Positions 18,941 to 61,249 are shown, counted from the whole stretch's first letter. The stretch: 63,683 nt of DNA, filler included, from Chrysochromulina tobinii (GCA_001275005.1; 5 parts of 5 records of this genome joined end to end with filler, not necessarily neighbours in it), one strand, 5' to 3'. Made by a program: numbers and translations. The notes: generated by a model from the sequence alone, not told the origin.

Positions 18941-19040
18941 NNNNNNNNNNNNNNNNNNNNNNNNNNNNNNNNNNNNNNNNNNNNTTAATTAATTAANNNN
19001 NNNNNNNNNNNNNNNNNNNNNNNNNNNNNNNNNNNNNNNN
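18941..19040. other. Artificial contig linker (N44-TTAATTAATTAA-N44)
   Basis: Six-frame stop spacer inside Ns. Confidence 0.98.
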
Positions 19041-21118: not shown

Positions 21119-24100
21119 ATGCGCCTGCTCGCACGACTACCTCAGCTCCATCTCTCGCTCAATCTCACGAGTGAGGAGCGTGACGAGGGTCGCCGCGAGC
21201 TCGAGCTCCTCTTCGGCTCGGAGACGCACGCTGACGATGAGGTCGAGCATGACGAGGTGGACGCCGCCGATCAGGGACGCGGCGAGGCTGATGGAGAAGA
21301 AAAGGACGCGCTCGACGAGGCTGAAGTGATGGAGCCCGTCGTTGATGGGATTGACTGCGACGGTGCCGACGTGCAAGAGACGATGGCTGCTCTTGCTGCT
21401 GCGGATGCGGCAGCGAGTGCTGCAGAGGCGGCCGCGCTGTCGGCCGCCGAGGTGGACGTGATCCAGCACACGTCCGACGCAGCCGAGGCCGCGGCGGCGG
21501 CGGCGGCGGAGCAGGAAATGGCAGCTGAGGAGGAGGCGCTGCTCCATCCCGATTGCGCCTTGCAGGCGGTCTGGGCGCGCGTGGACACTTCAGACGTGGA
21601 CGACTTTGCATCTCGCGTGCCTCGGCCGGCGATCACGTATCCGTTCGAGCTGGACGAGTTCCAAAAGCGAGCGGTGGTGCGGCTCGAGCAGAACGAGGAC
21701 GTGTTCGTGTGCGCGCACACCTCCGCCGGCAAGACGGTTGTCGCCGAGTACGCCGTCGCGCTTGCCCTCCGTCACAGGACGCGGGCGGTGTACACGTCGC
21801 CTGTGAAGGCCCTGTCGAACCAAAAGTTCAGAGAGCTGCGGCAGCGCTTCGGCGAGGCGGCGGTGGGGCTGCTCACGGGCGACGCCTCCATCCAGCCCCT
21901 GGCACCGTGCCTCATCGTCACGACGGAGATCCTACGAGGTATGATCCAGCGCCGCTCGGCGCTCATTGACGAGATCGAGTTCGTCATCTTTGATGAGGTG
22001 CACTACATCAACGACATCGAGCGCGGGGTGGTGTGGGAGGAGACGATCATCAGGTGATTGGCCCAAATCGGCGGCCTCTGATTCCATCCGGGGGCCTCTG
22101 ATTCCATATGCAGATGCACCCCGTCCCTTCCTTCACTATTTCTAATCGAGCCCTGATCGATCCCTAATTACACCCCTTCCTTCACTATCTCGAATCGAGC
22201 CCTGATCGATCCCTAATCGATCCCTAATGAGTCATTTCCGCCCCCCCCACTACTCGAATCCGCAGCCTGCCGCCTTCGTGCCGCGTCGTCTGCCTCTCTG
22301 CCACCGTCCCCAACCCTCTCGAATGTGCCTCGTGGATTGGGCTGACCAAGCAGCGCCTCGTACACGTCATCACCACGGAGAGGCGCCCGACGCCGCTACG
22401 TCACTGTGTGTACGCCGGTGGGCGGCTCTGGCAGCTCGTCGGCGAAGATCGATCCTTCGACCATGCGTGCTATGCCCAGGTACTCCTTGATTGCGCTTCA
22501 TTGCGATTGATTGCGCTTGATTGCGATCGATCCTTCGATCATGCGTGCTATGCCCAGGTACTCCTTGATTGCGCTTGATTGCGCTGATTGCGCTTGATTG
22601 AGATTGATTGCGCTGGATTGTGCTTGATTGCGCTTGATTGCGATCGATCCTTCGACCATGCGATGCCCAGGCGGCGAAGGCACACAAGCTCCATAGAGGC
22701 GACGGAGGAGGAGGCAAGGGCGGCGGCAAGGGCGGCGGCAAGGGCGGCGGCAGGGGCGGCGGCAGCGGCGGCGGCGGCGGCGAGGAGTATTGGGTGTCGC
22801 TGCTGAGTATGCTTCAGCGCGAGAATCTCTTACCGGCGGTGGTCTTCTCCTTCTCAAAGGCACGCTGCGATGAGATCGCGTTTGGGCTCGCTGGCCGACT
22901 CCATCAGCTGAGTAGCGTGGCCGAGAGCGCCGAGGTGGGCACCTTCTTCGACGCGTGCCTCGAGCGCATCCGGCCTGAGGAGCGCTCGCTTCCACAGCTG
23001 GTACGCCTTGGATGGCCTCGGATGGCCTCTGATGGCCTCTGCTTGCCATTGAATGGCTTCCGCATGGCTTGGGGCGGCAGGTGCGATCTCCCTTGATTGC
23101 GCTTGATTGAATGGCCTCCGCATGGCTTGGGGCGGCAGGTGCGATCTCCCTTGATTGCGCTTGATTGCGGCAGGTGCGAGCAAAGGAGCTGCTGCTGTGC
23201 GGCGTGGGTGTGCACCACTCGGGGATGCTGCCCCTCGTGCGCGAGATTGTCGAGATGCTCTTCTCGCGCAATCTCCTCAAGGTGCTCTTCGCCACGGAGA
23301 CGTTTGCGATCGGTGTGAACATGCCCGCGCGCTCCGTGATCTTCAACGGCGTGCGCAAGAACGATGGGCGCTCCTTCCGCGAGCTATGGGCTGGCGAGTA
23401 CGTCATTGGTTGCCCATTGATTTCGTCATTGATTGCCCATTGATTGCGTCATTGGTTGCAATCAGAGCTATGGGCTGGCGAGTACGTCATTGGTTGCGTC
23501 CTCTGATTGCGTCATTGATTGCAATCAGAGCTCTGGGCTGGCGAGTACGTCCTCTGATTGCCCATTGATTGCGTCATTGGTTGCAATCAGAGCTATGGGC
23601 TGGCGAGTACGTCATTGGTTGCCCATTGATTGCGTCATTGATTGCGTCATTGATTGCCTCTTGATTGCCTCTTGATTGCCTCTTGATTGCCGGTTGATGG
23701 GTTCGCTCTTCAGGTACACACAGATGAGCGGGCGGGCGGGCCGTCGCGGCATCGACGCCCACGGCATAGTGATCATTGCCGGGGATGAGCTGATCGATCC
23801 CTCCCGCCTCGAGGCGATCATTCTCGGGCAGCCTCCCAAATTAGTGTCGCAATTCGGGATGACCTACTCGATGCTCCTCAACCTGATCCGAAGCCCAGAT
23901 CGCACGAGCTACGCGCAGATGATCTCCCAGTCGTTCGCGTCGTATCGGGCGCGCACGGCCTCGGCGCAGCTGCACTCAGCACGCGCTCGCCTCGAGGCGC
24001 AGCTGGCGGCGCTGCCGCTGCCGACGCCGACGCCGCGCCGCGCGTTGCTTCGGGCAGCTGACGACGCGGAGATGGCGAGCTCGACAATCTCACGTGGAGC

Positions 24101-27100
24101 TGCCGACGCGGAGATGGCGAGCTCGACAATCTCACGCGGAGCTGCCGACGCCGATGCTGCTGTTGAGAGCGGTGGCGGAGGCACGGTGACCATTGAGCGC
24201 CAAGATGAGCGCGCGACCCTCGCCACGTATTATGATCTGCTCGAGGCCGCGACCAACACGGCGCTCGACCTGATCCGCGCCGCACGCAGCCTCCCCGGGG
24301 GGGGCCGGCGCCTTCTGCCGTCGGGTCGAGTGGTGGTTACACGGGATGTCGGGGACGCCCGGGACGGCGCCGTGGTACGGCCGCGCTTGGCATTGCTGCT
24401 GACGGCGATGACCGAAGACCTGCCGCCGCCGCCACCACATGCATCGCCCCAGACGCTACCGGTGCTAGGGGGGCCTCTGCCGCATGCCACGCGGGAGGAG
24501 GAGGAGGAGGCAGCGTCGCCGCCGGTGCCGCAGGTGCCGCCGCCGGAGCCTCCGTCGGTGCATGCAAGTGCTCACCACGGCGCTCCCCTCTCTCCCCCCC
24601 CACAGGTACCGCCGCGCGCCTCGTCTGCGCCGGCGTCGATGCCGGCGGCGCCCACAACGGCGGCTACCGGTACCGCGGACGCAGCAACCGAGGCCACCAA
24701 ACCCGCGGCTGCCGCCCGGCTGCGCTGCCTGATCGCGTCGCAGGAGAACGGCGCGTCGCCGCATCCCCTCGATGGGTTTGGAGTGGCGCCACGTGTCCAC
24801 GCGCGCCCGCCATGGCGCCCACCGACGCGCCTCGCGTGCGGCTCGGGCGCCGTGGTGGGCGCCATGATGGGCGGCGGCAATCAGGGCGCCATGGTGGGCG
24901 GCGGTTATGAGGGCGCGGATGGCAAGGACGGCGGCGCTGGAGGCGATGAAGGCGATGAAGGCGCCGTGGTGGGCGGGTGCGGCGGACGCATCGCCGGGCG
25001 CCGTGGTGGGCGCGGCGCTGGCCGCGGCGGGCGTGGCGGCCGCGGTGCCTCCGCTTGCACTGTTGTGCATCTCCCGGGTGCCTCCGCCGCCGCGGCCTCC
25101 TCCGCTCCGTCAATGACCTGGGAGATAGTGGAGATCGAGGCATCACACATCATCGCTCTGAGTACGCTGCGGCTCAACGTCCCTCAGTCCCTCGCGACCG
25201 CGACGGCGCTCGACCTCGCCAGTGTGGGCGCTGAGACGGGCGCTCACCATGGCGCCGCGCTGCTCAAGCTCGCTCAACAACTCTCTCTCCTCCAACGCAA
25301 GCATCGCTTCCTACCGGTGCCTCTCATCGACCCGATCGCCGACGTGCACTTCAGCGCCCAGCCCACCTCAGCTTGCGAAGTGACAGCCGCCGCCTCCGCC
25401 TCCGCCTCCGCCTCCGCCGCCGCCGCCGCCGCCGCCGCCGCCCCCGCCGAAAAAGGGCGGGGCGGTCGTAGCGGCCGTGGGCTGGGCGTCGTGGTGGGCG
25501 GCCGTGGGGGGCGCGGTGGCCGAGGGGTGAGCGTGACGGCGAAGGTGGCGATGGGCGCGACTGACGGAGCGGCCGGCGCCGAGGTGGGCGGCAGCAGCCG
25601 CGTCGGCGATGATGGCGCCGTGGTGGGCGAATCCGACGGCGGTGGCGCCGGGTATCCGTCGCCTCTGGCCGCGATGGTCGCCCGTCTCTCGCGTTCTCTT
25701 CAGGAGCATCGCTCCGCCCTCCAAGCCCACCCGTACAGCTCGCACGCCGAGATTGCAATCCTCATCAGCGCCGAGGCGCAGCGGCGAGCGCTGCTCGGCG
25801 AGATTGCGGAGATCGATCGGGTGAGATTGCGAGATTGCGAGATTGCGAGATTGCGAGATTGCGGAGATCGATCGGGTGTGCGCGGCCAAAGCCGTGCACC
25901 TGCCTTGCATGCATGTGCTCACCACGGCGCCGCCCCTTCCCCACAGGTGTGCGCGGCCAAGGCGGTGCACCTGCTGCCCGGGGCGGCGCGCCGGCTCGCT
26001 GTGCTTGAGCAGCTCGGCTACCTGCTACCTGCCGTCTCCGCAGACGAGTCCGCAGCCGAGTCCGCAGACGAGTCCGCAGACGAGGCTCCGGGCAGCAGGT
26101 TGTCGCTCAAGGGACGCGTGGCATGCGTCCTCACGACGACTGCCGACTCACTCATCTTGACGGAGGCGGTGTGTGATTGCCACTGATTGCCACTGATTCC
26201 CACTGATTGCCACTGACTGCCACTCCTCTTGAAGGAGGCGTGCTCACCACGGCGCCCGCTCGACCTCAGGTGTGTACGGGGCTGCTCCATCCTCTGAGCG
26301 TGCCCGAATGCTGCGCGCTCCTCTCGACCTTCGTGGCCAAAGGGAAGCTCAGGACGGCGCCCAAGCTGCCGCCGGCGCTCGTGGCCGCCCATGAGTCACT
26401 TCTGGTCCTCGCGCGCCGACTCGCTACCTTACAGGTGCAATCGCCGTTGATGGCCCGTTGGTGACCGCTAATTGCCCGATGATGACCGATGATGGCCGCT
26501 GATGACCTCTGATGACCTCTGATGACCTCTGATGACCTTCCTGATGACCTCGGATGACCGCAGATGACCTCTGATGGCCCTCTATGGCCGCTAATTGGCC
26601 GCTGATCGCCGCTGATCGCCGCTGATCGGCCACTGATGACGACTGATGGCGCCTTGTGACGTTTCAGGTCGAGGCGGGAGTGCTCGAGACGACGCCGGAC
26701 GAGCACGTGAGCGCGACGCTCAACACGGCGCTCATGGGTGCCGCGTTCCATTGGGCGAGCGGCGCGAGCTTCGAGGTGGCGTGCCAGCTCACGGATCGGA
26801 GCTGCATGCAAGTGCTCACTACGGCGCCTTCTCTCCCCACAGGTGGCGTGCCAGCACACAGATCTATCCGAGGGCGACGTGGTGCGCATCCTCTCGAGAA
26901 CCGAGGAGCTGTGCAAAGAGGTGTGCGCGCGGCGGCGCGGCGGCGCGGCGGCGGGCGGCGGGGCGGCTGCATGCGAGTGCTCACCACGGCGCCCTCCCCT
27001 CCACACAGGTGCGCGCGGCGGCGCGGCTGCTTGGCGACGCGCTGCTCGCCAAGAAGCTCGACGAGCTGCTCGCGGCCATCCGGCGCGATCTCGTGGCTGC

Positions 27101-27140
27101 CCCCAGCTTGTACACCACCGGCGGGATGGCGGGCTGGTGA
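21119..27140 (+). CDS. SKI2: Ski2/SKIV2L-like DExH-box RNA helicase, 11 exons; 5' end uncertain
   Basis: Motifs [71 protein letters not shown] and a DSHCT tail ([18 protein letters not shown]). Introns: 22054-22265, 22480-22670, 23001-23173, 23398-23713, 24534-24605, 25821-25946, 26169-26269, 26435-26667, 26776-26842, 26921-27008. Confidence 0.9.
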
Positions 27141-30614: not shown

Positions 30615-31445
30615 TCAATAGTCCCAGACGGATTTCATAAAGCGCATCGCCCAGTTCTGGTAGCCCTCAAGGATGACGAACGCGACGAGGATGTAGCGCA
30701 CGCCGCCCGTGATCGGGTGCCCCCCGTGCAGCACGCCGCCCGCGTGCGCACACACATGGCCACGCTCGATGGGGAGTGAACGGCCGAGCCCCTCGAACCA
30801 AGTGCCGCCGCCCTCGTACTCGGAGCGCGCGTTGAGCGCGACGTTGAACGAGAGCACCGAACCGTCGCGGTGCTTCGACAGAAACGTCTGGCCGCCCGAC
30901 GCATTGTATTTGACAATGAAGGCGTCCGCGACTCGCAGCGCGCGCCAGTTGGGTAGGCTGCTCTCGAAGGCGTGGCCGAGCAAGGGGTAGATGCGGTTGG
31001 GCAGCGCGTCGGAGTTGAGAAACCAGCGCGTCAGTGGCAGCTCGGCGAGCGGGATGTCGGTCGTCGGGTGGTTGAAGTGCCGCTTCGACGTCCAGCCGCC
31101 CGCACGAGCGGCCCACTCCTCCGCCTCGCCGATGATGTATTCGCACTCCTGCGCACTGAGCAGCGGCTCGGCCGTCGTGTGCACGAGACCCACGCCGTCC
31201 GGCCCGGTCACGTGCGAGATCAGAGGAGTCCGGTGCAACGGCGCATCTCGCGGCAGCGGCTCAAAGAGCTTGATCGTCTCCTTGTACGCTTGGTTGTGCC
31301 GCTCAGAGATGGCAAAAGGAGTGCCGCAGCGACGGTGAGAGGCACCTGATGTGTAGGGGAGCTGAAGCGCTGCACGAGTCGGCGTACCCTGTAGCTGCAG
31401 CGCGTGGCCGAAGGCGGCCGAAAGGACGAGGAACTCCGTCCGCAT
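30615..31445 (-). CDS. Fe(II)/2-oxoglutarate dioxygenase (procollagen lysyl/prolyl hydroxylase-like) with an N-terminal signal peptide
   Basis: DAFIVKY, HRD (HxD), FNVALN, HGGHPITGGVRYILVAF. Hydrophobic N-terminus. Intronless. Confidence 0.88.
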   Translation of the reverse strand: MRTEFLVLSAAFGHALQLQGTPTRAALQLPYTSGASHRRCGTPFAISERHNQAYKETIKLFEPLPRDAPLHRTPLISHVTGPDGVGLVHTTAEPLLSAQECEYIIGEAEEWAARAGGWTSKRHFNHPTTDIPLAELPLTRWFLNSDALPNRIYPLLGHAFESSLPNWRALRVADAFIVKYNASGGQTFLSKHRDGSVLSFNVALNARSEYEGGGTWFEGLGRSLPIERGHVCAHAGGVLHGGHPITGGVRYILVAFVILEGYQNWAMRFMKSVWDY

Positions 31446-31923
31446 GAAATCTCCTCGCGATCGAGCTCAAAACCTTCTTTTCGTCACTTCGTCACTTTTG
31501 AGGATCCTTGACCACCAGCGCGCGTGCACCCCCGCCAGATACCGTCCACACACACTCACTCACATTTGCACATGCCATCGCTCGTTCGATCCAACCATCG
31601 CTCCTTTGTGCTTCATGCACCCTGCTGCTCTCGTCGTGAGACCTCCACAGGGTGCGTCGAGTACTAGTCGCGCCAGCGAGCGCTGCTTCCCCCCTGGCTT
31701 CCCCCCAGGCTCCCCCCCGCGCCCCCAATCCTCCACCAGCGCACCGTCGGTGGACGACGTATTCCGCCCCCCCCCCCTCATCGTGAAATTCAGAGGGTAC
31801 TTCCCCTCCCTTCCAGTCGTGGAATTCCAGCACGCGCTTCGAGATCGATCGGTCCGGCGCCGAGTGAACGCCTGACCTCAAGCGATGACCTCAAGTGCAC
31901 CGTTGTCGTCCTGTCCCGAGTCC

Positions 31924-32164
31924 CTATTCGTCCATCTCGGCCGAGAGGCTCTTTCCAGTCCACTTGGACAGCCCGTGGACCGCCGCACCCGCCTCCGATT
32001 GACGAACCGCACCCGCCTCCGATTGACGAACCGCACCCGCCTCCGATTGACGAACCGCACCCGCCTCCGATTGACGAACCGCACCCGCGTCCGATTGACG
32101 AACCGCCGACGCCCCGTCGGCCCCATCGGAGCCGTCGACCCCTTCTGCCACCGCCGCCGCCGCA

Positions 32165-32204
<40 letters not shown>

Positions 32205-35200
32205 AGCCGTCAAGCACGCGCCGTACTGGGCGCGCCCCGTCCAACGCCGTGCCAGCACGACGCGCTGCATCGGGCCGAGGGTCCGCGTCCTTCCCCCTCG
32301 CCTGTGCCGCCGCGCATGAGGCGGCCTCCACAGCGGCCACACCGCCTCCCCGCCCATCCGCGTACGCCTCCGCATCATCCTGCAGCTCGGAGGCGGCCTC
32401 GAGAGCGGCCGTGAGCCGAAGATTCTCGGCGCGGAGCTCAGCGAGCTCGGCGAGCATTCCGTCCATCTGCCGTCGGAGATTGCAATCATAGTGCAATCAG
32501 AGTGCAATCATAGCGCATAGCGCAATCATAGTGCAATCAGAGGGCAATCATAGGGCAATGAGAGTGCAATGAGAGTGCAATCAGAGTGCAATCAGAGTGC
32601 AATCGAAGTGAAATCAGAGTGAAATCAGAGGCTATCAGAGCGCAATCAGAGGGCAATGAGAGCGGTGATCAAGTGCAATCAGAGGCCATCAGAGGCAATC
32701 ACGGGTCGTCAGAGGCATTCGGGTGCAATCAAGGGGCACTTTGGTGCAATCATGCGCAATCATGCGCAATCATGCGCTATCAGGGGCACTCACCTGCCCA
32801 GCCATCTGACTCGAAGCAAGCTGCACGGCCTGTCGCGCCGTCTCGAGCACGCTCGTCTTCTCGTCCGCCGCCTTCGCCTCGGCCTCCCCGATCGCTTGTG
32901 CCACTGCCGCTTGCTGCTGCGCCTTGGCACGCACTGCCGACTCCCGCAGCAGCTCCTTGATCTGAACCTGCGGAGATCGCGGTGGCAGCCCGAAGCCATC
33001 ACAGGCGCCAACACAGGTGCCATCAGTGGCAATCACAGGCGTCATCAGCGCGGCCAACTTCGATCTGCACCTGTCGCTCCGCCGCCGCCTTCTCTGATGA
33101 GGGAGGCCATCAGCATGCAATCACAGGCCCCATCAGCATGCAATCAGCTGCACCTGTTGCTCCGCCGCCGCCTTCTCTGATGAGGGAGGCCATCAGCATG
33201 CAATCACAGGCCCCATCAGCATGCAATCAGCTGCACCTGTTGCTCCGCCGCCGCCTTCTCTGATGAGGGAGGCCATCAGCATGCAATCACAGGCCCCATC
33301 AGCATGCAATCAGCTGCACCTGTTGCTCCGCCGCGGCCTTCTCGTACGCCTCGTGCACCATCTTCAGGCGCGAGTCAGCGCGCTCCTCGGCGTCACGTAC
33401 CGCCCGACGCGTGGCTTCCTAATATGGTAACATTTGACCAATGGCAAATGGGGTCACGACACTCAGCCGTCATCTTCCGTCATCAGTCGTCATCAGCGGC
33501 CATCATTTGCAATCCCTTTATCGCACCTGGACGGCCTTAGGCTGCTCCGCAATCTCCATCGCGAGCTCTCCAATCCGCACTTGCACCTGCGACGAGATGG
33601 CTCTTCAGGGCTCGTCATCGCTCCTCAGTGCTCATCAGGGCTCATCAGGGCTCGTCAGGCGACTCCCCAATCTGCGATCGCACCTGCGACGCCAGCTGCC
33701 TCATCAGAGGACACTCGGAGCTCATCAGGGCTCATCAGTCGCAATCAGGCCCGCACCTGCGACGCCAGCTGCCGCTCGCGATCCCGAGCGCGCTCCTCCG
33801 CCTCCCGAATCGCAATCTCAACCGCCTGCTGACGCTGCAGCTGTGGCTTGATCAGGGCGAGAGCCTCCGCCTTCGCTTCCTCTCGAAGCCGGGCGGCTTC
33901 CTCGCGCTGGGCCGCCTCGATTGAAGCCCGCACCTGCGCCACTCAGGGGCACTCAGAAGTCATCCAGTTTCATCAGACGCAATCAGGTCCGCACCTGCGC
34001 CACTCGTGGGGCACTCAGAGGTCATCAGGGAAGCGATCAGAGAGAAGCGATCAGAGGCGATCAGGGAAGCGATCAGAGAGGCAATCGGAGAGGCGATTAG
34101 AGAGGCGATCACACACCTTGGCCTCCGCTTCCCGCACGGCCGCCTGTGTCTGCGCCACATGCCGTTGGGTCGCCGCTTCGAGCGCGGCCGCCACCATCGC
34201 CGCAACCGACTGCTCCTCGGCCCTCTTGCGACGCTCGAGCGCCTCTTGCACGGCCTCGTGCACCGCCTGCTTCTGCTGCAGCTTGTGACGCAGCTCCGCC
34301 TGATCGAGCGCACGGCGCAGCTGCGCGGCCGCCATCGCCTCCACCGAGCGAGCGTGCCCTGCTGACTGCTCGAGTACGGCTGTCACCGCCACCTTGCTCA
34401 CCTCGGCCCCCCGCCGGCGCTCCTCCGCTGCTAGGGCGAGCTTCACGGCCTCGGATCGCTCGATCGCGGCGCGCGCGCGCTCGGCCTCGAGCGCCTCCCG
34501 CACCTCCTGGCGCGCGAGGTTGACGGCATGGATCCTCTCCTCACGTCTCGCGTCCTCCCGAGCGGCCTCGAGCATCGCCCGCGCTGATGCACTCGCCATC
34601 GCCTCGGCCTGCGCGCTCGACTCGGCGCGCACCGCCGCGACGCGCTTGTTCGCCTCGGCCTGGAGCCTCTCACTCTGCATCCGCAGGGCCTCCCGAGATG
34701 CAATCTCGAGACGAGATCGCTCGGCGGCGAGCAGCTCGTCGATGTGGGACTGCGTCGCCTGGCGCTGCATTGGCACCGCACGCGCGATGGCCTCGCGAGC
34801 GGCGAGCTTCGACTCTTCCTTGATGAGGCCTGATGGTGTGGCACTCCAGTCAGGTTGGACTCGCAATCAAAGGCAATCAAAGGTGGCCATCAAAGGGGTC
34901 ATCACAGAGTTCCTCCTCAGGCGAGCTCGCCTATGGACTGCTCAAGCTTCTCGTATTCCGACTTGGAGTGCGCGGCGGCGGCGACGGCGGCGGCGAGCTC
35001 GGCTGCGACCTCACCACGTGCCTCGTCGAGCGCGCGCTGATGCGCGGCGGCGAGCATCGCTCGATCCGCGGAGCGCGTGATCGCAGCCTTGCCCTTCTCA
35101 AACGCCTCCTGTGCTGCCCGTCGCACCTCGTGCTGCATCGTAGCTTCGTATCTGCTGTGAGCCTCCTCGAGTGCCAGCCGCACTCCTTCATTCACCGCCG

Positions 35201-38200
35201 CGCGCTGCTCATCTTCCCTTAGCGAGCGGACCTGCGGAGGGATACGGAGCGAGGCAGGCTGAGGGGCATGCATGCAGGGGCTGCGAGCATGCGAGGGGAA
35301 TGCATGCAAGGGGCTTCGAGCATGCGAGGGGAATGCATGCAAGGGATATGGAGGGATATGGAGGCAGGCAGGCAGGCGCACTCAGGCGCACTCAGGCGCA
35401 CTCAGGCACACTCAAGCACACTCAAGCGCACTCAAGCGCACTCAAGTGCACTCAGACGCGCTCAGAGGGCGAGCATCTCCCGCTGCGAGCGTACGTGCTC
35501 CACGGCCTCGTCAACGGCTTTCGCCTGGCGGCGCTCCGCCTCAGCCGCCGCGTCGTGCAACACGTTCGCAAGCGACTGGTCGTAACGCTGCTGGTGCGAC
35601 AACGCCGCTGCCTGGCGCTCTGCCTCGACGTTGGCCATCCATTCCGCGCGTGCGGACGCTAACTCGTCCTGGTGCAGCGTGGCGAAGGCGGTGGCGATCT
35701 GACTGGTGGCCCATGCGAGGTGTTGGTGCCATGTGCGCGCACCTACCATCCCAAGGGGCCATCAGAGGTCATCAGAGGCCATCAGAGGCATTGCGAGGGC
35801 AATAGTAGAGCTCATCAGAGGTCATCAGAGGTCATCAGAGGCATTGCGAGGGCAATAGTAGAGCTCATCAGAGCCACTCAAAAGCAATGCGAGAGGGCAT
35901 CGGGCGATTGTGTCAGGCTCACGACGCTCACGCGACGCACGCGCACCGTCACCCGACGCCACAGTGGACTCAAAGGCCGCAGATGCATCCACACCGCCTG
36001 ACGCCGAGACCATCGCACGCACGACTGCACCGACCGCGTTCACAATGGAGCGAGTGGCATAGGCGTCTCGTGGCGAGTCGAGTCCGATGACGCGAATGGA
36101 ATCAGGAAGGTCGAGGTCGACGGCGGTGCCAGCAGCCTCCATGGGCACGGTAGCGGCGACGCCGTCTTGGGCGAGGCCGTCCTGTCCATCGGAGGGCACC
36201 AGCCTTCGCTCGCTGAGTGCTTTCCGATCGAACTGGATCCGTGCCCAGTGGATGGCCTCCTTGATGACCGTCTGCAGGGCGCGGCGCAGTATGACAGCAC
36301 GCGCCGCCTCGGGCAGCCTATGCAGCCCTATCGCCCGCGCCGACTGTACCGCCCTCTCGACTGCCCCGGACAGGCCCTGCTCGTCCTCTCCGAAGGCGCC
36401 CGTGAGGCTGAGCAGGCTTGCCTGATGAGGGAGGCAATTAGGGTCATTAGAGGCCATCAGAGGCTATTAGGGTCATTAGAGGCTGAGCAAGCTTGCCAGC
36501 TTCGCAGGATGCAGCTGGAGCAGCGCCGTCGTGGGCGCACGTGACGGGCCTGTGGCGGCTAGGGCCGAGTTCCCCACAGCCGAGTTCCCCACAGCTAGGG
36601 CCGAGTTCCCCACATCCTGTGCAGAGTCGGATGGCTTTCCTAATTTGGTGCTGAGCTCTGCGGCCGCACGGGCAGCGACGCTGCCACCACCCTTGCCGCT
36701 CGTGCTGGGCGTCGTGATGGGCGGCTGAGCCGCCCTCGACGTTACGCTCGACGTTACACTCGACGAGGCGACGGGACCGTCCGACGCGCCCACGTCCACT
36801 CCTTCGGCTTGGTCGTCGAGCCAGACGCCCTCGAAGCTCTCACAACGCGCGTCGATGGCGTGCGCCTCGGCGAGCGCAGCGCTTGCGAGCTCGGCGGCCA
36901 TCGCCACCTCCGCCCCGAGGACGACCTGGGACGTCTCATTGAACGAGTCGCCTTCGAAGAGATTCTGGAGCGCCGCGCTCTTGGCGCGCTTCACCTGCCA
37001 TACGAGCGCATCCGTGGTGAATATAAGGGCAATCACCTGCCATACGAGCTCATACGAGCTCATCTCTCATCACATCTAATCAAACGAGCTCATCCGCGGT
37101 GATTAGAGGTGCAATCGGAGGGCCCGCAGTGAGGGTCGAATGGAAGGGCAATCACGCAGTGAGGGTCGATTGGCATTGGCGAGGCGAGGGCGAGGGGCTT
37201 GCCTGCATCTGCTGCTCGTGGGTCGCGAGGGCGGCCTCCCTACGCACGGCCGCAAGGTCAATTGAGCGGAGGGCCTCGCACTGCAGCCACGCCTCTGCCA
37301 CCGTTGAGCGCTGCCGCTGCAGTGCGCGCGTCTCCGTAGCCTCGAGCGCCCTCGTGAGCACGCGCTCGAGCCGCAGCGAGTGCGGCTGCAGCGCCTCGAC
37401 GAGTTTGAAGTCCCGATTCGAGGCGAGTGGGCAGCTCGAGCGCCGTCGTGGGCAGGGTGAGCGCCGTCGTGGGCGTCGAGAGCGCCGTTGTGGGCCGTTC
37501 GCTCTTGGCGCCCGACCCGCCTGCACGCGGGCGGAGGGCGCCCTCACCCTGGCCGCCGCCGCTCCCCTCGCTGCCCTCGCCGTCCTCGCCGCCGTCGATG
37601 CGGGCCTGCCTATTTAGGGCCTGCCGGAGAGACGCGAGGAGACCTTGCTCGATGGCATGGCGCACGGCGACGTCCCTCTCGTGCCCCTCCGCCGCCAAGC
37701 TCGTCGTGTGCCCTACCATGGGCGCGGCGGCCACCAGCTCTCGCCGAGCTTGCCGCAGATGCTGCTGAAGCATCGTGTCCACATCCGCTTCGATTTCGTC
37801 AAGCGCTGTGGCGCACGCACTGGCCAGTCGCTTCTCAAGCACTCCGAGGAACTGCTTGTTCACCTGCATACAATGAGGGAGGCAACAAGGGAGCTCATCA
37901 GAGGCCATCAGAAGCCAGACGCTTCTCAAGCACCCCGAGGAACTGCTTGTTCACCTGCAGGCGGGAGGCTTAGGGGTGGCCTTGGCGTGCATGCATGCAG
38001 GCGAGAGGCTTAGGGGTGGCCTTGGCATGCATGCATGCATGCGGGAGGCTTAGGGGTGGCCTTGGCGTGCATGCATGCAAAAATGGGCTGCGGGTGGCCT
38101 TGGGAGGCATGCATGCATGCGGCAGGTCCGCGCATGCAAGGTGCATGCAAGGGGCCGCTGGCATCTGAGGGGCATGCATGCAAGGGGCTGCGAGCATGCG

Positions 38201-39306
38201 AGGGGCATGCATGCAAAATGGACTGCGAGCGCACCTGTGCTTTGGCCGCCTCGATCTTCTTCATGGTGTTGGTATGAAAGTCGGCTGCAGCCGCCACGCT
38301 CGACACGATGGAGGAGGCTTCGGCGGCGGCATCGACGCCGCCCTCGCCCTCGCTGCTGCGTCCAGCGCCACTCTCGCCGCGACCTATGTCGCTGACGCGT
38401 ATCGTCGAGAGGACCTCATCGAGGGCGGTGTTCTCTGCAGCCTTGACCTGAGGCGATGGAGGAGGGATTGTGCACGCGTCTTGTGCAGCTCAACGGCCAT
38501 CAGAGGTCATCAGAGGCCACCAGAGGCCGCCAGAGGTCACCAGAGGCCATCAGAGGCCATCAGAGGCCAATCAGAGGCCAATCAGAGGCCATCAGGGGAG
38601 TGGCGCCCACCTCCTCTTGCAGCTCGAACCGCACAGTTCCCACCCGCTTCTCCGCGCGTTCGTATAAGGAGCGCTGAGCGTGTGCGCCGCACTGCTCGAT
38701 GGCCTGGGTGATGATTCGCGCGGCCGTGTGCTCGTACGCGAGCGCCGCGCTCTCTGCCTTGCGCACGCGCTGCATCGCGTGCTCGTGCTGCACGCGCTCT
38801 GCATGGGCCGCACTGTCGCGCGCCGTCCGCTCTGCCGCCTCCCGCTGTGCCCTCTCGGCCTCCTTCTCGGCCTGTGCAGCGAGGACCTTGGAGGGGACCT
38901 TGAGCGACTCGGAGCAGTCGGCGGGGAGCTCGGGCAGGAGCGTGCGCAGCGGCGCCGTCTCCGGCCCGAGCGCGCCCCAGAACTGGCCGGTGTTGCAGCA
39001 GCGCGCGCGGAAGGCGTAGGCGGCTCCCGCGGCGAGGCCACCCTTGGTGCAGCGCGAGTTTTTGAGCGTGCTCGAGGCGACCTCCCACGGCGAGTCTTGC
39101 GACGGCCCGATCCTCTCGCCGGGCTCAGCCACGAGCCGCCACTGCAGCTCGAAGCATGCGACCTGCAGTGGTGTCGGCTGCGCGCCGGAGCGCAGCTTGG
39201 GCGCCGCGCCGAGGCTGAAGTCGAGCGTGATCGAATTGGGGCTGGCACGCACGAAGGTGATGATCACCGGAGGTATGGTGCTCGACTCGGATGATGCCAG
39301 CGCCAT
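31924..39306 (-). CDS. Fibronectin type III domain + very long coiled-coil protein, 13 exons, ~1,600 aa
   Basis: FN3 pattern SITLDF..FELQW..W..GLAAGAAYAFRAR. Phase-consistent exons: 39306-38611, 38447-38235, 37863-37203 (extra base near 37430), 36994-36497, 36421-35947, 35742-35495, 35231-34931, 34829-34117, 33933-33757, 33586-33527, 33418-33320, 32967-32794, 32466-31924. Confidence 0.75.
31981..32107 (-). repeat. Coding 24-bp tandem repeat, GAVRQSEA x5
   Basis: CCGCACCCGCCTCCGATTGACGAA units on the + strand. Confidence 0.9.
33071..33319 (-). repeat. Intronic 83-bp tandem repeat x3; each unit is a complete GT..AG module
   Basis: Units 33319-33237, 33236-33154 and 33153-33071 are near-identical. 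Confidence 0.92.
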
Positions 39307-43013: not shown

Positions 43014-43113
43014 NNNNNNNNNNNNNNNNNNNNNNNNNNNNNNNNNNNNNNNNNNNNTTAATTAATTAANNNNNNNNNNNNNNNNNNNNNNNNNNNNNNN
43101 NNNNNNNNNNNNN
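43014..43113. other. Artificial contig linker
   Basis: N44-TTAATTAATTAA-N44. Confidence 0.98.
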
Positions 43114-43419
43114 TTGGGCCGCTCTGGCTGGGTATAGGCGGCGCGGCACGGCAGACTCAGGCCGCGAGCCCGCCGGTCCGCGTCTTCGCCACCCGCCGCA
43201 TGCTGCATGCTGCGCGCGCGCGCGCGCGCTCTCTTGCTCTGGCGCGCTCGCGGCGGCGCGACGCGCACCAGAGCGGCCCCTTCACTCCCGCCTCTCGGCG
43301 GCGCCCTCAATGAGCCATCACTTGGCGATCGTAGGGCGTTTATGGGCGCACGTCGCCACGACGGCGCGGGAAATTGCTGGTGCTCGCCTGCGCCTTTCGC
43401 GGCGAACATTTCGGACGTG

Positions 43420-46400
43420 GGAAATCGCTCAGCCTGTGATGCGATAGTTAGCGGGCGTTCAGCGCGCGCGGCGAGCGAGCTCTGCTCGGCAGCTCCCCTT
43501 TGGTGAGCGATTACGAGGTAGTCATTACAAGGAAATCGTGATCAAGATCACGGGCTATCGCGGGCACTTAGCCTGTGAAGCGATCGATAGCGGGCGGTTG
43601 GCGGTAAGGTTGGCGGTTAGGTTGGCGGCCGCACGCAGCGCGTGCGCGAGCGTGTGTGGGCTGCCTCTTGGTAGGCCCCTTGTACAGTCGGGCCGCCTCT
43701 CGGCATCCTCCGCCTCTGTGAGCAACCACAGGGTAATCTTGAAGCAATCATGATCATGATGATGAGCCGTCACGGGCACTTAGCCTGTGATGCGATCGTT
43801 AGCGGGCGTCTGCACACGCAGCGCGTGCGCGAGCGAGGTGTGGGCCGCTTCTCGGCAGCCCCCTTTGTGAGGATCACCTGGTAATCATGATGCACTCACG
43901 ATCACGACGAAGGGCCATCAGTGGCACTTAGACTGTGCGATCGATAGCGGGCGCTTAGCCTGTGATGCGGTTGACAACTGGCGATCTGCGCGCGCGCGTG
44001 TGTAAGCGAAGTGTGGGCCGCGCCTCTCGGCAGCCAACTTGGCGAGAAATCATGAGGTAATCATGATGCACTCACGGTCACGATGATGAGCTATCACGGG
44101 CACTTAGCCTGAGTGATGCGATTGTTAGCTGGCGGTCTGCGCGCGCAGCGCGTGCGCAAGCGACGTGTGGGCCGCCTCTCGGTAGAGCCCCCTTGGTGAG
44201 GATCGCGCCGGTCGCCTCTCGGTGAGCCATCATGACGAGCAATCGCGAGGTAATCATGATGCAGTCATGATCAGGATGACGGGCCATCGCGGTGGCACTT
44301 GGTCTGTGAAGCGGGAAGTCGGCGCCGGTGGCGCACGAGCGAAGGGCGAGCCGCCTCTCGGTAGCCCCCTCGGTGAGCCAGTCAAGACTTAATCATGATG
44401 CAATCATGATCAGGTTGATGAGCCATCATGGGCAATCAGCCTCTGACGCGCTCCTAAGCGGGCGGTTGGCGCGCGCAGCGAGCAAGAGAAGCGCGGGCCG
44501 CCTCTCGGCAGCCCCTCGATGAGCAATCACGATGTAATCATGATGCAATCATGATCAGGGTGATGAGCCATCAGTGGCACTCAGCCTCTGACGCGCTCCT
44601 AAGCGGGCGGTCGGCGCGCGCAGCGCGAGCGAGAGAAGCGCGGGCCGCCTCTCGGCAGCCCCTCGGTGAGCAATCACGATGTAATCATGATGCAATCATG
44701 ATCAGGGTGATGAGCCATCAGTGGCACTCAGCCTCTGACGCGCTCCTAAGCGGGCAGTCGGCGCGCGCAGCGAGCGAGAGAAGCGCGGGCCGCCTCTCGG
44801 CAGCCCCTCGATGAGCCATCACGATGTAATCATGATGCAATCATGATCAGGGTGATGAGCCATCAGTGGCACTCAGCCTCTGACGAAATCATAATCGAGC
44901 GGTCGGCGCGCGCAGTGAGCAAGAGAAGCGCGGGCCGCCTCCCGGCAGCCCCTCGATGAGCCATCACGATGTAATCATGATGCAATCATGATCAGGGTGA
45001 TGAGCCATCAGTGGCACTCAGCCTCTGACGAGCTCATAAGCGGGCGGTCCACGCGCGTAGCAAACGAGAGAAGCGCGGGCCGCCTCTCGGCAGCCCCTCG
45101 ATGAGCAATCACGATGTAATCATGATGCAATCATGATCAGGGTGATGAGCCATCAATGGCACTCAGCCTCTGACGAGCCATCACGATGTAATCATGATGC
45201 AATCATGATCAGGGTGATGAGCCATCAGTGGCACTCAGCCTCTGACGAGCTTATAAGCGGGCGGTCGGCGCGCGCAGCGAGTGAGCGAAGCGTGGGTCGC
45301 CTCTCGGCACACGGCAGCCCCTCGATGAGCAATCACGATGTAATCATGATGCAGTCATGATCAGGGTGATGAGCCATCGCTGGCAATCAGCCCGTGATGA
45401 GAGTGATGGCAATCAGCCCGTGATGAGAGTGATCGATGTAGCGAGCGGTCGGCGCGCGCGGCAAGCGAGCGACAGCCTGCGCTGCCAAGCAAGCAAAAGG
45501 GCGAGAGCAGCTGCTTGTATCGGAACCGAGCCGACGCAGCCGCGGCGGCGAGCGTCACCTCGCCTGCGAGGGCGATCAGCTGTGCAAGAGCCGAGTGGCG
45601 AGTGGGGGGCCTGCGCCACCAAAGCACGAGAGCGAGAGCGTCTGTGCTTGTATCGAAGCCGAGCCGATACAGCGGCGGCGGCGAGCATCACGTCGGTTAG
45701 GGCGGTCGGCGGCGCAAGAGCTAAGCGGCGGGTGGGGGCAAGCTCGTAAGTGGGCACCTTTCGGCGCGCGTGATGCACGAGCGAAGAGCGGGCCGCCTCT
45801 CGGCAGCCCCCTCGGTGAGCCAGTCAAGACTTAATCATGATGCAATCATGATCAGGTTGATGAGCCATCACGGGCAGTCAGCCTGTGAAGCGCACGTTAG
45901 CAGGCGGTCGGCTCGCGTGGCGCGCGAGCGAGGCGCTGGCCGCCTCTCGGCAGCCCCCTCGGTGAGCAATCATGACGTACTCATGATGCAATCATGCTCA
46001 GGGCGATGAGCCATCAATGGCACTCAGCCTCTGACGAGCTCATAAGCGGGCGATCGGCGCGCGTGGGGCGCGAGCGAGGCGTGGGCCGCCTTTCGGCAGT
46101 CCTCGGTGAGCGAGTCACGACTGAATCATGATGCGAATCGTGATCATGTTGATGAGCCCTCGTGGGCAATCAGCCTGTAGAGCGCTCATTAGCAGGCAGT
46201 CGGCGCGCTCGGCGAGTGAGCGAAGCGCGGGCCGCCTCTCGGCAACCTTTTGGTGAGCAATCGCGATGTGATCATGATGCAATCATGGTCAGGATGATCA
46301 GCTATCACTGGTAATCAGCTGGTGATGAGCGCGATCGTCGTTAGCGAGCGGTCGGCGCGCGCGCGCGCAAGGTGCACGAGCAAAGAGCGGGCCGCCACTC

Positions 46401-46990
46401 GGCAGCCCTCTAGGTGAGCGTTCACGATGTAATCATGATGCAATCATGATCATGTTGATGAGCCATCACGGGCAGTCAGCCGGTGATGTGCTCGTTAGAA
46501 GGCGGGCAACACGCGCAGCGGGTGAGCGAAGCGCGGGCCGCCTCTCGGCAGCCCCTCGGTGAGCCATCACGATGTAATCATGAAGCAGTCATGACCAGGG
46601 TGATGAGCAATCGGTGGCACTCAGCCTCTGACGCGCTCCTAAGCGAGCGGTCAGCGCGCGCAGCGAGCGAGCGAAGCGTGGGTCGCCTCTCGGCAGCCCC
46701 TCGATGAGCCATCACGATGTAATCATGATGCAGTCATGACCAGGGTGATGAGCCATCAGTGGCACTCAGCCTCTGACGAGCTTATAAGCGGGCGGTCGGC
46801 GCGCGCAGCGAGTGAGCGAAGCGCGGGTCGCCTCTCGGCAGCCCCTCGATGAGCAATCACGATGTAATCATGATGCAGTCATGATCAGGGTGATGAGCCA
46901 TCGCTGGCAATCAGCCCGTGATGAGAGTGATGGCAATCAGCCCGTGATGAGAGTGATCGATGTAGCGAGCGGTCGGCGCGCGCGGCAAGC
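43420..46990. repeat. Tandem satellite with ~145-bp monomer and higher-order structure
   Basis: GGGCCGCCTC(T/C)CGGCAGCCCC starts at 44495, 44642, 44787, 44932 and 45077 (periods 147, 145, 145, 145). Core AATCATGATGCAATCATGATCAGGGTGATGAGCCATCA. Copies are more diverged toward 43420-44300. Confidence 0.93.
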
Positions 46991-47024
46991 GAGCGACAGC
47001 CTGCGCCGCCAAAGCAGGCAAAAG

Positions 47025-47920
47025 GGCGAGAGCAGCCGCTTGTATCGGAGCTGAGCCGACGCAGCAGCGGCGGCGAGTGCTTGAGTCAAAGCCGAGCCGA
47101 TGCAGCGGCGGCGGCGAGCATCGCGCCGGTTAGGGCGGTCGGCTGCGCAAAGGAGCTAAGCGGTGAGCGGGGGCCTGCGCCGCCGAGCATGAGAGCGAGA
47201 GCAGCTGCTTGTATCGGAGCTGAGCCGACGCAGCAGCGGCGGCGGGTGCTTGAATCGAAGCCTAGCCGATGCAGCGGCGGCGGCGAGCATCACGCTGGTT
47301 ATGGCGGTCGGCTGCGCAAAAGAGCTAAGCGGTGAGCGGGGGCCTGCGCCGCCGAGCACGAGAGCGAGAGCAGCTGTTTGTATCGGAGCTGAGCCGACGC
47401 AGCAGCGGCGGCGAGTGCTTGAATCACAGCTGAGCCGACGCCGCAGCGGCGACGAGCATCATGCTGGTTAGGGTGATCAGCTGCGCACGAGCCGAGCATG
47501 TTTGAGCGCTAGTCAGCGCCGATCACGCACGAGAGCAAGAGATGCAGCATGCGTATCGATGCCGAGCCGATGCAGCCGCGGTGGCCATATGCCCTCGAGG
47601 GCAATCAGCTGCCCTAGAGCTGAGCATCAAATAAGCGTCGAGCGCTCGCCTGCGCCGCCCAAGTATGTGGGCGATAGCAGCAACGTGTATCAATGCGAAG
47701 CCGACGCAGCCGCGATGCCTAACGTAATGCTACGCCGACGCAGCCGTGGCGGCGAGCGTGACGCTCGCAGGGGCGCTCGGCTGCCCTAGAGCGGAGAATC
47801 GAGTAAGCGTCGAGCGCCAGCCGGTGCAGTTCAGCACGATAGCGAGAACCAACAGCACACATTGAAGCCGAGCTGACGCAGCCGCGGCGGCGAGCGTCAC
47901 GCCCGCGAGGGCGATCTGCT
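47025..47920. repeat. Second tandem repeat, ~169-bp unit, degenerating distally; related block at ~45480-45750
   Basis: TGTATCGGAGCTGAGCCGACGCAGCAGCGGCGGCG at 47041, 47210 and 47379. Confidence 0.88.
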
Positions 47921-48098: not shown

Positions 48099-48198
48099 NN
48101 NNNNNNNNNNNNNNNNNNNNNNNNNNNNNNNNNNNNNNNNNNTTAATTAATTAANNNNNNNNNNNNNNNNNNNNNNNNNNNNNNNNNNNNNNNNNNNN
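48099..48198. other. Artificial contig linker
   Basis: N44-TTAATTAATTAA-N44. Confidence 0.98.
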
Positions 48199-55312: not shown

Positions 55313-57014
55313 ATGAACTGGCTTTTTGCCCCACCAAGCCTCCTCGAACCCAACACGTACAAACGGCCCGATGCCGAGGTCCTCCCGCTGATCACGCCAG
55401 CAAAGGCCAGAAAGAAGGATCAGGTGCGCCGCATATTGCACCAGCGCTGCTGCGCACGGCACGCCGGCCACGGTGCCCTCTCGCGCCGCAATTCGTGGTC
55501 CGCCGCCTGTTTGCCACCCCGCTTGCCGGTGGCCGCACGCCCCCTCCGCGACAGGCAGGGCGGTGGACTCCTCCCCTCTGTGGCGGAAGACCGCCGACGC
55601 TCCGATTGCTCGCCGCGTGCGACGCGCGCCGCGTGCGTGGCGCGGGAGCGCGCACCCCAGTGGCGAGGCGTCGTGGAGGCGAGTACGCTCACAGGGGGGC
55701 GGAAGAGGCGGTGACGGGGATGGGCGGGCGACGCGTGGCTCCGACCCGCAGCGCACGGTACCGCCGAAGCTCCGACTGCAGCCGCGACGTGCGCCGCCGA
55801 GGGCGCGGGGGAGCGCACAGCCCGGCGGCGAAGCGGTCAATAACGCCTCTCCCCCACCCGCTTGCCCATCTCATCGTCCAGTCGCCCCTTGCCGTGTGCC
55901 ACGTACAGGACGGGTGGACGCCCCTCGACATCGCCGCTAAGTACAGCGTATCGGTGGCAGTGGTGAAGGCGCTGCTCGCGGCGTACCCGGAGGCCGTCAA
56001 GGCGAAGAAAAAGGTCCGCCGCCCCGGCCCTGCGTGCCGCGCGCATACAACATCTCCCACACCCGCCGTCCACCTCGTCGCTCAGCCACCCCTCTGCTTG
56101 CCATGTGCCACGTACAGGGGACCAAGCGCATGACACTCCACATCGCCGCTAAGTTCAGCGTATCGGTGTCAGTGGTGAAGGCGCTGCTCGCGGCGTACCC
56201 GGAGGCCGTCAATGCGAAGGACAAAGTACGCCGCCAGCGCCATCCTCGGCGACGCGATGGCAGCGCGCGCGCCCATTCGGCAGCGCCATCGTCGTGCGCA
56301 ACTCTCGCCCGCCGTCCGCTTCGCCGCTGAAGACCCGCTCTCGCTCCGCCGCCGTCGCTCTCCGCGTGCCCGCGCCGCAGGACGGCGACACGCCCGCCAA
56401 CAGGGCCGTCAAGTACAATAAGAACGCCGCGGTTAAGGCCTTCTTTGCGAGCGGCAAGGTGCGCCCGCTTCGCGTGCGTATCGAGTGCGGTGGGGGCAGA
56501 TGTGTGGCCACTGCGCGCGCCTCGAGGGCACTCAGAGGGCACCAGGACCCAAGACTTCCACGATGGAAACATGCGTCCTGAGCGGTGCGTATGCGTGTGA
56601 TCACATGTGTGCGCAGCACTTGGAGGCGGCAAAGGCGGAGCAAGACGCTCAGCTTGCTGCAGCTACCGCTGTGAGCCTCGACATCTCCGGCCCTGTCACT
56701 CCACCTCCCCCGCCACCATGCCCTGGCATTCCATCTCCCCCGCCCCCAGCGCTCGCTGAGAGAGCCGCAGCAGCAGCATTAGCGGAGGCGCCAGAGGAGC
56801 TGCGGCGCCGAGCAAAGGCGCTGGGGTTCCTTCAGATGCTCACGTCTCTCAACGTTGCCGAGGACGCAACGCTGAAGATGGCAGTCATGTGGTGCGACGA
56901 GAAGGGCGCGACGAGCGTGACCGACATCGTCGAGTGGGACCTGGTCGACGACTTTGTTCGCCATCTCGGCCTGAAGCTGATCCCCGACAAGAAGCTGCGT
57001 AGCATGTTGCAGGC

Positions 57015-59019: not shown

Positions 59020-59610
59020 GGTCGCACTGGTTTGGGGTCCCAGGTCCCAGGCCTGATCAGCCCCTACAGTAGAGGCAGGGACCCTAAATGGGACCCCCAA
59101 CCAGTGCGACCCAGCTGATCAGGCCTGATCAGCCCCTACAGAGGCTCGTGGGGCCCTATGGGACCCCCAACATGTGCGACCCTGATCAGGCCTGATCAGC
59201 CCCTACAGAGGCAGGGACCCTAAATGGGACCCCCAACCAGTGCGACCCTGATCAGGCCTGATCAGCCCCTACAGAGGCTCGTGGGGCCCTATGGGACCCC
59301 CAACCAGTGCGACCCTGATCAGGCCTGATCAGCCCCTACAGAGGCTGGGGCCCTATGGGACCCCCAACCAGTGCAACCCTGATCGGGCCTGATCAGCCCC
59401 TACAGAGGCTGGGGCCCTATGGGACCCCCAACCAGTGCGACCCTGATCAGGCCTGATCAGCCCCTACTGAGGCTGGGGCCCTTTGGGACCCCCAACCAGT
59501 GGCAGTGCGACCCTGATCAGGCCTGATCACAGATCAGCCCCTCCAGAGGCTGGGACCCTCCATCCCCTGGCCCGAAGCCCGCGACCCTGATCAGGCCTGA
59601 TCAGCCCCTC
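59020..59610. repeat. Tandem array of 9 palindrome-containing units (64-74 bp) with an inverted lead-in
   Basis: CCTGATCA anchor at 59052, 59124, 59191, 59257, 59324, 59388, 59452, 59522 and 59596. Perfect 18-bp palindrome CTGATCAGGCCTGATCAG. Confidence 0.93.
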
Positions 59611-59761
59611 CTGACCGGCCTCTCCTATCAAAATCGGGTAGTTTTTCACCTCATGCGCCGGGCACCTTGAAAATCCGCTCTTTAGACCTTTCGACCCTGA
59701 TCAGGCGGGTCACCGACCCTGAAAGGGTTTCGGCACCGATTTCCCGCATCCTCTCACAAGC

Positions 59762-61149: not shown

Positions 61150-61249
61150 NNNNNNNNNNNNNNNNNNNNNNNNNNNNNNNNNNNNNNNNNNNNTTAATTA
61201 ATTAANNNNNNNNNNNNNNNNNNNNNNNNNNNNNNNNNNNNNNNNNNNN
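61150..61249. other. Artificial contig linker
   Basis: N44-TTAATTAATTAA-N44. Confidence 0.98.

Follow-up and report, generated by a model that had tools for sequence, protein, structure and literature searches.

Stacked modules in short introns of Chrysochromulina tobinii read as probable scars of local duplication

A minus-strand gene of Chrysochromulina tobinii (GCA_001275005.1) contains five introns built from two to four intron-like modules set end to end, so that inside the intron an acceptor directly abuts a donor at points reading CAG/GT (the slash marks the splice boundary). The preliminary description of this locus took such AG/GT points to be possible ratchet points for recursive splicing. 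Here we ask what the internal points are, how the introns that contain them are removed, and by what process they may have been built. The analysis covers a window of 63,683 nucleotides, filler included, which is the whole stretch of DNA studied and consists of five joined contigs. The features discussed are collected in Table 1.

Stacks and modules of the host gene

The stacks were named A to E, from 38234 downwards on the minus strand. They are introns 2, 3, 8, 9 and 11 of the host gene, respectively, and are 170-371 nt long. The ends of all modules lie where they had been placed and CAG/GT is read at all seven internal points, but the first module of stack B (37202-37037) starts with GCAAGC rather than GT and is a GC..AG module, not the GT..AG module originally claimed. 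The earlier calculation that use of the first acceptor at 37955 alone leads to a stop 19 codons later is correct. In four of the five stacks (A, C, D and E), stopping at the first acceptor soon leads to a stop codon. In stack B, use of that acceptor adds 14 residues in frame, the second module being 42 nt without a stop, and the inner acceptor within 37202-36995 may therefore be an alternative acceptor.

The modules differ in what they copy. In the second module of stack A, the exon copy is followed by TGAT-repeat filler resembling that of the stand-alone intron 36496-36422, whose GC donor comes from an 18-nt copy of the beginning of the next exon. The second module of stack C is composite: over 30 nt its 5' part agrees at 93% with the donor junction of stack D, which lies 237 nt away, and its 3' part is a copy of the acceptor of stack C itself; the module's first letters, GTGCGG, are also the true donor of stack D. 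The first module of stack D has a competing YAG 12 nt upstream of its end. The tandem unit of stack E is composed of a donor, filler ending in an acceptor-like CATCAG, and a 23-24-nt copy of the upstream exon end.

Table 1. Features of the window, with positions counted from its first letter
Feature	Position	Strand	Length	Content
Host gene	31924..39306	-	about 1618 aa	13 exons; frame open over 12 introns
Stack A, module 1	37955..38234	-	280 nt	40-nt and 33-nt tandem repeats; clean acceptor-like CAG end
Stack A, module 2	37864..37954	-	91 nt	41-nt copy of next exon's start (39/41 match)
Stack B, module 1	37037..37202	-	166 nt	GC donor
Stack B, module 2	36995..37036	-	42 nt	made by 21-nt copy spanning acceptor
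Stack C, module 1	33995..34116	-	122 nt	end near-identical to true acceptor (38 nt, 92%)
Stack C, module 2	33934..33994	-	61 nt	mosaic of two nearby junctions
Stack D, module 1	33684..33756	-	73 nt	ends in 17-nt perfect copy of upstream exon end
Stack D, module 2	33587..33683	-	97 nt	starts with decayed copy of next exon's start (16/21 match)
Stack E, modules 1-3	33071..33319	-	83+83+83 nt	83-nt tandem unit
Stack E, module 4	32968..33070	-	103 nt	9-nt near-copy of next exon's start first; carries true acceptor
Single intron	36422..36496	-	75 nt	built like module 2 of stack A
DEAD-box helicase gene	21119-27140	+	1480 codons	open frame; 10 introns, four of them stacks
Helicase stack	22480..22670	+		33-nt copy of upstream exon end at 22558
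Helicase three-module stack	23001..23173	+	80+58+35 nt	acceptor copies
Helicase four-module stack	23398..23713	+		three internal points GA/GT, copying own donor context; not acceptors
Two-module stack	25821..25946	+		spliced exon-exon junction copied (23+28 nt) at internal GG/GT
N runs with AT-only linker	18941-19040, 43014-43113, 48099-48198, 61150-61249			joins between the five contigs

The host gene model aligns with an intron-free orthologue, L004, which looks like a transcript contig, at 799 identities in 1661 columns; all five stack joins are gap-free in this alignment. The reading frame requires one surplus base to be set aside at about 37412 in exon 3; this is an error of the window, as the base is absent from three other assemblies (L001-L003) and from the RNA runs X14 and X15. 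In the C. tobinii model KOO35005.1, which corresponds to the 3' half of the host, stacks C, D and E are removed whole; this is a gene model and not RNA proof. The model lies at 30615-35140 (minus strand), spans only that 3' half and is fused to a downstream single-exon oxygenase-like gene, probably through an annotation error. The C-terminal half of the host protein is rich in Ala, Glu and Arg and by eye coiled-coil-like; no Pfam match was found in the two exons scanned, and the 59-aa exon between stacks C and D, used as a protein query, gave no hit, which is weak evidence. Proteins encoded by neighbouring single-exon genes fall into 90% clusters together with those of Chrysochromulina parva and C. 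tobinii.

Elsewhere in the window, two arrays were noted by eye. A long, satellite-like array at 43400-47500 consists of units of ~120-150 nt rich in ATCATGAT palindromes and has inverted orientation either side of about 46000, and a tandem array at 59030-59620 consists of units of about 60 nt carrying the CCTGATCAGG palindrome. A 712-codon open frame at 61546-63681 (plus strand), which we take to be LINE-like, contains a reverse transcriptase domain (PF00078, E 7.9e-31).

Internal points as copies of real junctions

We annotated 25 introns of the window by hand: 12 in the host gene, 10 in the DEAD-box helicase gene, which we take to be SKI2-like, and 3 others. Six have RNA joints and 19 have none, and all counts given here rest on the introns of this window. 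The introns at 55.4-56.6 kb were left out of the 25; they belong to a gene that is ankyrin-repeat-like by eye (55420-56620, plus strand), are GC-rich, carry by eye neither TGAT filler nor exon copies, and are possibly an older or different intron class.

At every one of the seven internal points of stacks A-E, the surrounding sequence is a near-exact repeat of a true junction of the host intron, whether an exon end, an exon start or the acceptor. Across the whole set, 14 inner junction copies were found in 9 of the 25 introns, compared with 2 of 600 mismatched intron pairs at the same score, a cut-off picked after the data had been seen. All ten inner AG/GT sites in the 25 introns (4363 nt) are junction copies. 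Exon or junction copies span about 6 to 46 nt.

Many of these points would make poor splice sites. Four of the 14 read GA/GT or GG/GT, exactly like the donor of their own host intron, and cannot be acceptors. At four of the seven points of stacks A-E a competing YAG lies 12-23 nt upstream; among the true acceptors, none of 25 has another YAG nearer than 27 nt. A scan for branch-point motifs did not separate true from inner acceptors.

Since all inner AG/GT sites are copies and four of the 14 points lack AG, the internal points appear as by-products of copying rather than as selected ratchet points. The proposal that they act as ratchet points for recursive splicing is thus disfavored, also by the competing YAGs and by the shortness of the introns. 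Its companion proposal, that repeated duplication or insertion at an existing junction builds the stacks, is supported by the junction copies. Recursive splicing of the stacks is unproven and probably not needed.

Removal of the stacks and competing readings

RNA evidence came from six freshwater metatranscriptome runs, used as contigs: X13-X16, and X14, X15, X17 and X18 over a narrower stretch. Stack E is skipped whole (352 nt) in X13 and X15, stack B is skipped whole (208 nt) in X15 and X17, and four ordinary introns of the host gene are likewise joined. No joint leads to any inner point among the joints listed (15 of 22, and all 11 passing the filter on the narrower stretch), at an RNA depth on the host gene of about 2-8, which cannot show intermediates, and in contigs, which drop rare forms. 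For stacks A, C and D there is no joint among those listed, and bins inside A and C have no cover, which counts neither for nor against their removal. One X14 contig extends 12 nt into intron C and continues with 41 letters that were not aligned there; it may be unspliced RNA of a different allele.

Absence of the whole stack from mRNA is therefore seen for B and E, and we infer it for the other three. One-step and stepwise removal yield identical mRNA, so for B and E the RNA shows the end product and not the route. As the RNA is from lake populations, in which the interiors of the introns may differ from those of the window, it may not test these exact stacks.

On balance, we have reasonable confidence that the internal AG/GT sites are junction copies made by local duplication and that mature mRNA lacks the whole stack, probably mostly through one cut at the outermost sites. 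A single outer cut is favored for most stacks because many inner points could serve only poorly as acceptors or not at all, and because flies suppress regenerated splice sites by means of the exon junction complex (PMC8184009), an effect not known for haptophytes.

A reading with the same origin, to which we give a low probability, holds that the spliceosome defines the smallest intron first, so that stacks with good inner sites are cut mainly module by module, 5'-to-3' or 3'-to-5'. It draws on the ordinary, intron-like length of the modules (median 83 nt, vs 101.5 nt for single introns), on the lack of a competing YAG within 45 nt of the acceptors of the first modules of A and C, on the letters that the second module of C shares with the true donor of stack D, and on the resemblance in build between the second module of A and the working single intron 36496-36422. 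A short complex intron of Lipomyces is moreover cut in one or two steps, according to the available text of PMC7138796. Against it stand the points lacking AG, the competing YAGs, and the existence of modules of 35-63 nt, a size that none of the 16 single introns has: the shortest of these is 67 nt, and 7 of 23 modules fall short of it. None of the part-spliced joints it predicts occurs among the joints listed from the six RNA runs, an observation of low power.

Similarly doubtful is a combined reading in which a genome-wide process in Chrysochromulina inserts modules with long junction duplications, forming both new introns in exons and stacks at old junctions, and the spliceosome removes the 60-280-nt units singly. 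If the two held together, the units would be cases of recursive splicing born directly from intron gain, and stacks without AG in the same genes would serve as built-in controls.

Regulated use of alternative sites, with the inner acceptor of B adding 14 residues and the three 23-nt exon copies of E serving as micro-exons, seems very unlikely. The frame would allow it: the micro-exons of E total 69 nt, or measure 21 nt each when taken from the next AG, the three E pieces, like the second module of B, are read through without a stop, and every E piece lies between the acceptor-like CATCAG and GT. However, both RNA runs joining B and both joining E skip everything, the extra residues are absent from L004 (and, for E, from KOO35005.1), and the copy number of E varies between assemblies.

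This last variation concerns the 83-nt unit, which is present in three copies in the window and in L002 and in two copies in L003; L001 ends inside the unit. The missing unit of L003 may be an assembly collapse. The three assemblies match the window at >99.6% and are probably not independent strains. One metagenome scan yielded these near-identical assemblies and, as the only diverged orthologue, the intron-free L004; it gave no diverged genomic allele and no orthologous genomic DNA by which the events could be dated. From about 130 nt ahead of the start codon, upstream of 39435, L003 (positions 1-1370) carries sequence other than that of the window, through either a structural allele or a mis-join.

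That the modules are assembly artefacts of repeats, as the varying count of the 83-nt unit and the break inside it might suggest, is highly improbable, since stacks A-D are letter-identical in all three other assemblies, the copies carry substitutions relative to their sources, and 12 DNA runs (three possible sources, all maybe of one campaign) hold 95-97% of the region's sampled words. The identity of A-D across assemblies indicates that the modules are real and leaves only the copy number of E in doubt.

Origin of the stacks and comparison with known systems

The same signature is found in single introns and in neighboring genes. We define an anchored copy as the next exon's start at the beginning of an intron, or the previous exon's end at its end. 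Such copies occur at a score of at least 6 in 12 of the 25 introns (10 and 8 of 600 in the two nulls) and at a score of at least 8 in seven (2 and 0 of 600). Bases in local 12-mer repeats make up 56% of introns, 11% of the exons of the two genes and 1% of long intron-free frames. Two motifs recur at the 3' end, one in six and another in four of the 25 introns, and recurrence within the window is confined to 3' parts. The motif of six introns sits 15-28 nt before the acceptor and in most cases follows a repeat of the beginning of the next exon. On the minus strand, the lone introns 4666-4565 and 11317-11238, which belong to very long genes, take their acceptors from terminal copies of the preceding exon's end, 24 nt and 18 nt long, respectively.

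The most plausible reading of the stacks is that they are scars left by local duplication or insertion, a frequent process that probably makes new introns here too. In the mechanism that we propose, short local duplications of about 15-45 nt, often with TGAT-repeat filler inserted, would arise at a high rate. Because exon joins often read AG/GT (11 of 25), exon starts resemble donors and exon ends resemble acceptors; with GT common to exon starts and donors, and AG to exon ends and acceptors, a duplication that spans a junction would produce a module with the look of a complete intron. Duplication inside an exon would then create a single new intron bearing copied exon sequence at one of its ends, and duplication across an existing junction would create a stack. 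Stacks would persist if their inner sites are ignored, and those with good inner sites (A and C) would persist since any cutting order would leave a spliceable remainder.

The copying itself could proceed by template switching or staggered-break repair, with CAG/GTGCG and TGAT repeats as microhomology, although this is a weaker inference; the mosaic second module of stack C fits microhomology-driven events of either kind. An enzyme of a retrotransposon inserting the modules is another candidate: the window holds the reverse transcriptase frame at 61546-63681, and such enzymes can make long variable duplications. For the inner exon-exon copies we also considered an origin from spliced cDNA, as in aborted intron loss; two successive duplications at the DNA level would explain these copies equally well.

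In most genomes the traces of intron origin are lost. About half of the introns examined here keep a copy of a neighboring exon or junction, and in more than a third whole junctions are duplicated. Were the pattern genome-wide, this cultured alga would offer many fresh cases of intron birth and of growth by local duplication. It would also allow a direct test of how a short-intron spliceosome chooses among near-identical sites 35-280 nt apart, including the reuse of regenerated CAG/GT. If the stacks are simply skipped, they are a tidy but modest mutational scar.

We found no description of stacked junction copies in haptophyte introns in the literature searched, which did not include subscription journals and supplements. 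The available parts of PMC13685798 and 10.1101/051292 contain nothing on such copies, and the word 'intron' occurs once in the available main text of the paper on the C. tobin genome (PMC4580454). The comparisons that follow are likewise drawn with known systems as presented in the available text of the papers cited.

Known routes of intron gain include tandem genomic duplication of AG/GT-bearing sequence and the repair of double-strand breaks that leaves direct repeats on either side (review PMC3443670; see also PMC3265369 and PMC4974935). The introns studied here are similar in that the duplicated AG/GT context gives splice sites, coding is unchanged and the inserted DNA is flanked by direct repeats. 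They differ in that the copies are long (15-46 nt), very frequent and often laid across existing junctions, and in that they form stacks of two to four modules.

Introners take one splice site from a target-site duplication (PMC9860276; for the ILEs of dinoflagellates, 10.1101/2020.10.14.339549), and their duplications are fixed and short, 3-9 bp, with 4 bp in a marine Chrysochromulina MAG (same sources). Here, too, one splice site comes from the duplicated target and the other from inserted DNA, and 3' ends recur. In contrast to introners, the duplications are long and variable rather than of a fixed short length, and most stack modules copy local sequence, not a dispersed element. Within the window, what recurs between introns is their 3' parts; motif scans for further loci gave one match in viral contigs and then none, and none in prokaryote genomes.

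Known ratchet points occur within long introns and depend on a cryptic exon (PMC8605326). All seven points of stacks A-E resemble them in that an acceptor abuts a donor, forming an apparent zero-nucleotide exon, whereas the introns here are short, their points are junction copies, 4 of the 14 points of this build in the window lack AG, and no intermediate is shown.

The stwintrons of Lipomyces are nested, have 4-7-nt donor duplications and have had their intermediates shown (PMC7138796). Both systems comprise short complex introns thought to be born by duplication of splice elements, and those of Lipomyces are removable in one or two steps; unlike stwintrons, the modules here abut end to end, have longer copies, interrupt no splice element and come with no shown intermediates. 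The stacks work like duplication-based intron gain, and they are set apart from ratchet points by the short introns in which they lie, from introners by the length and variability of their duplications, and from stwintrons by the end-to-end arrangement of modules in place of nesting.
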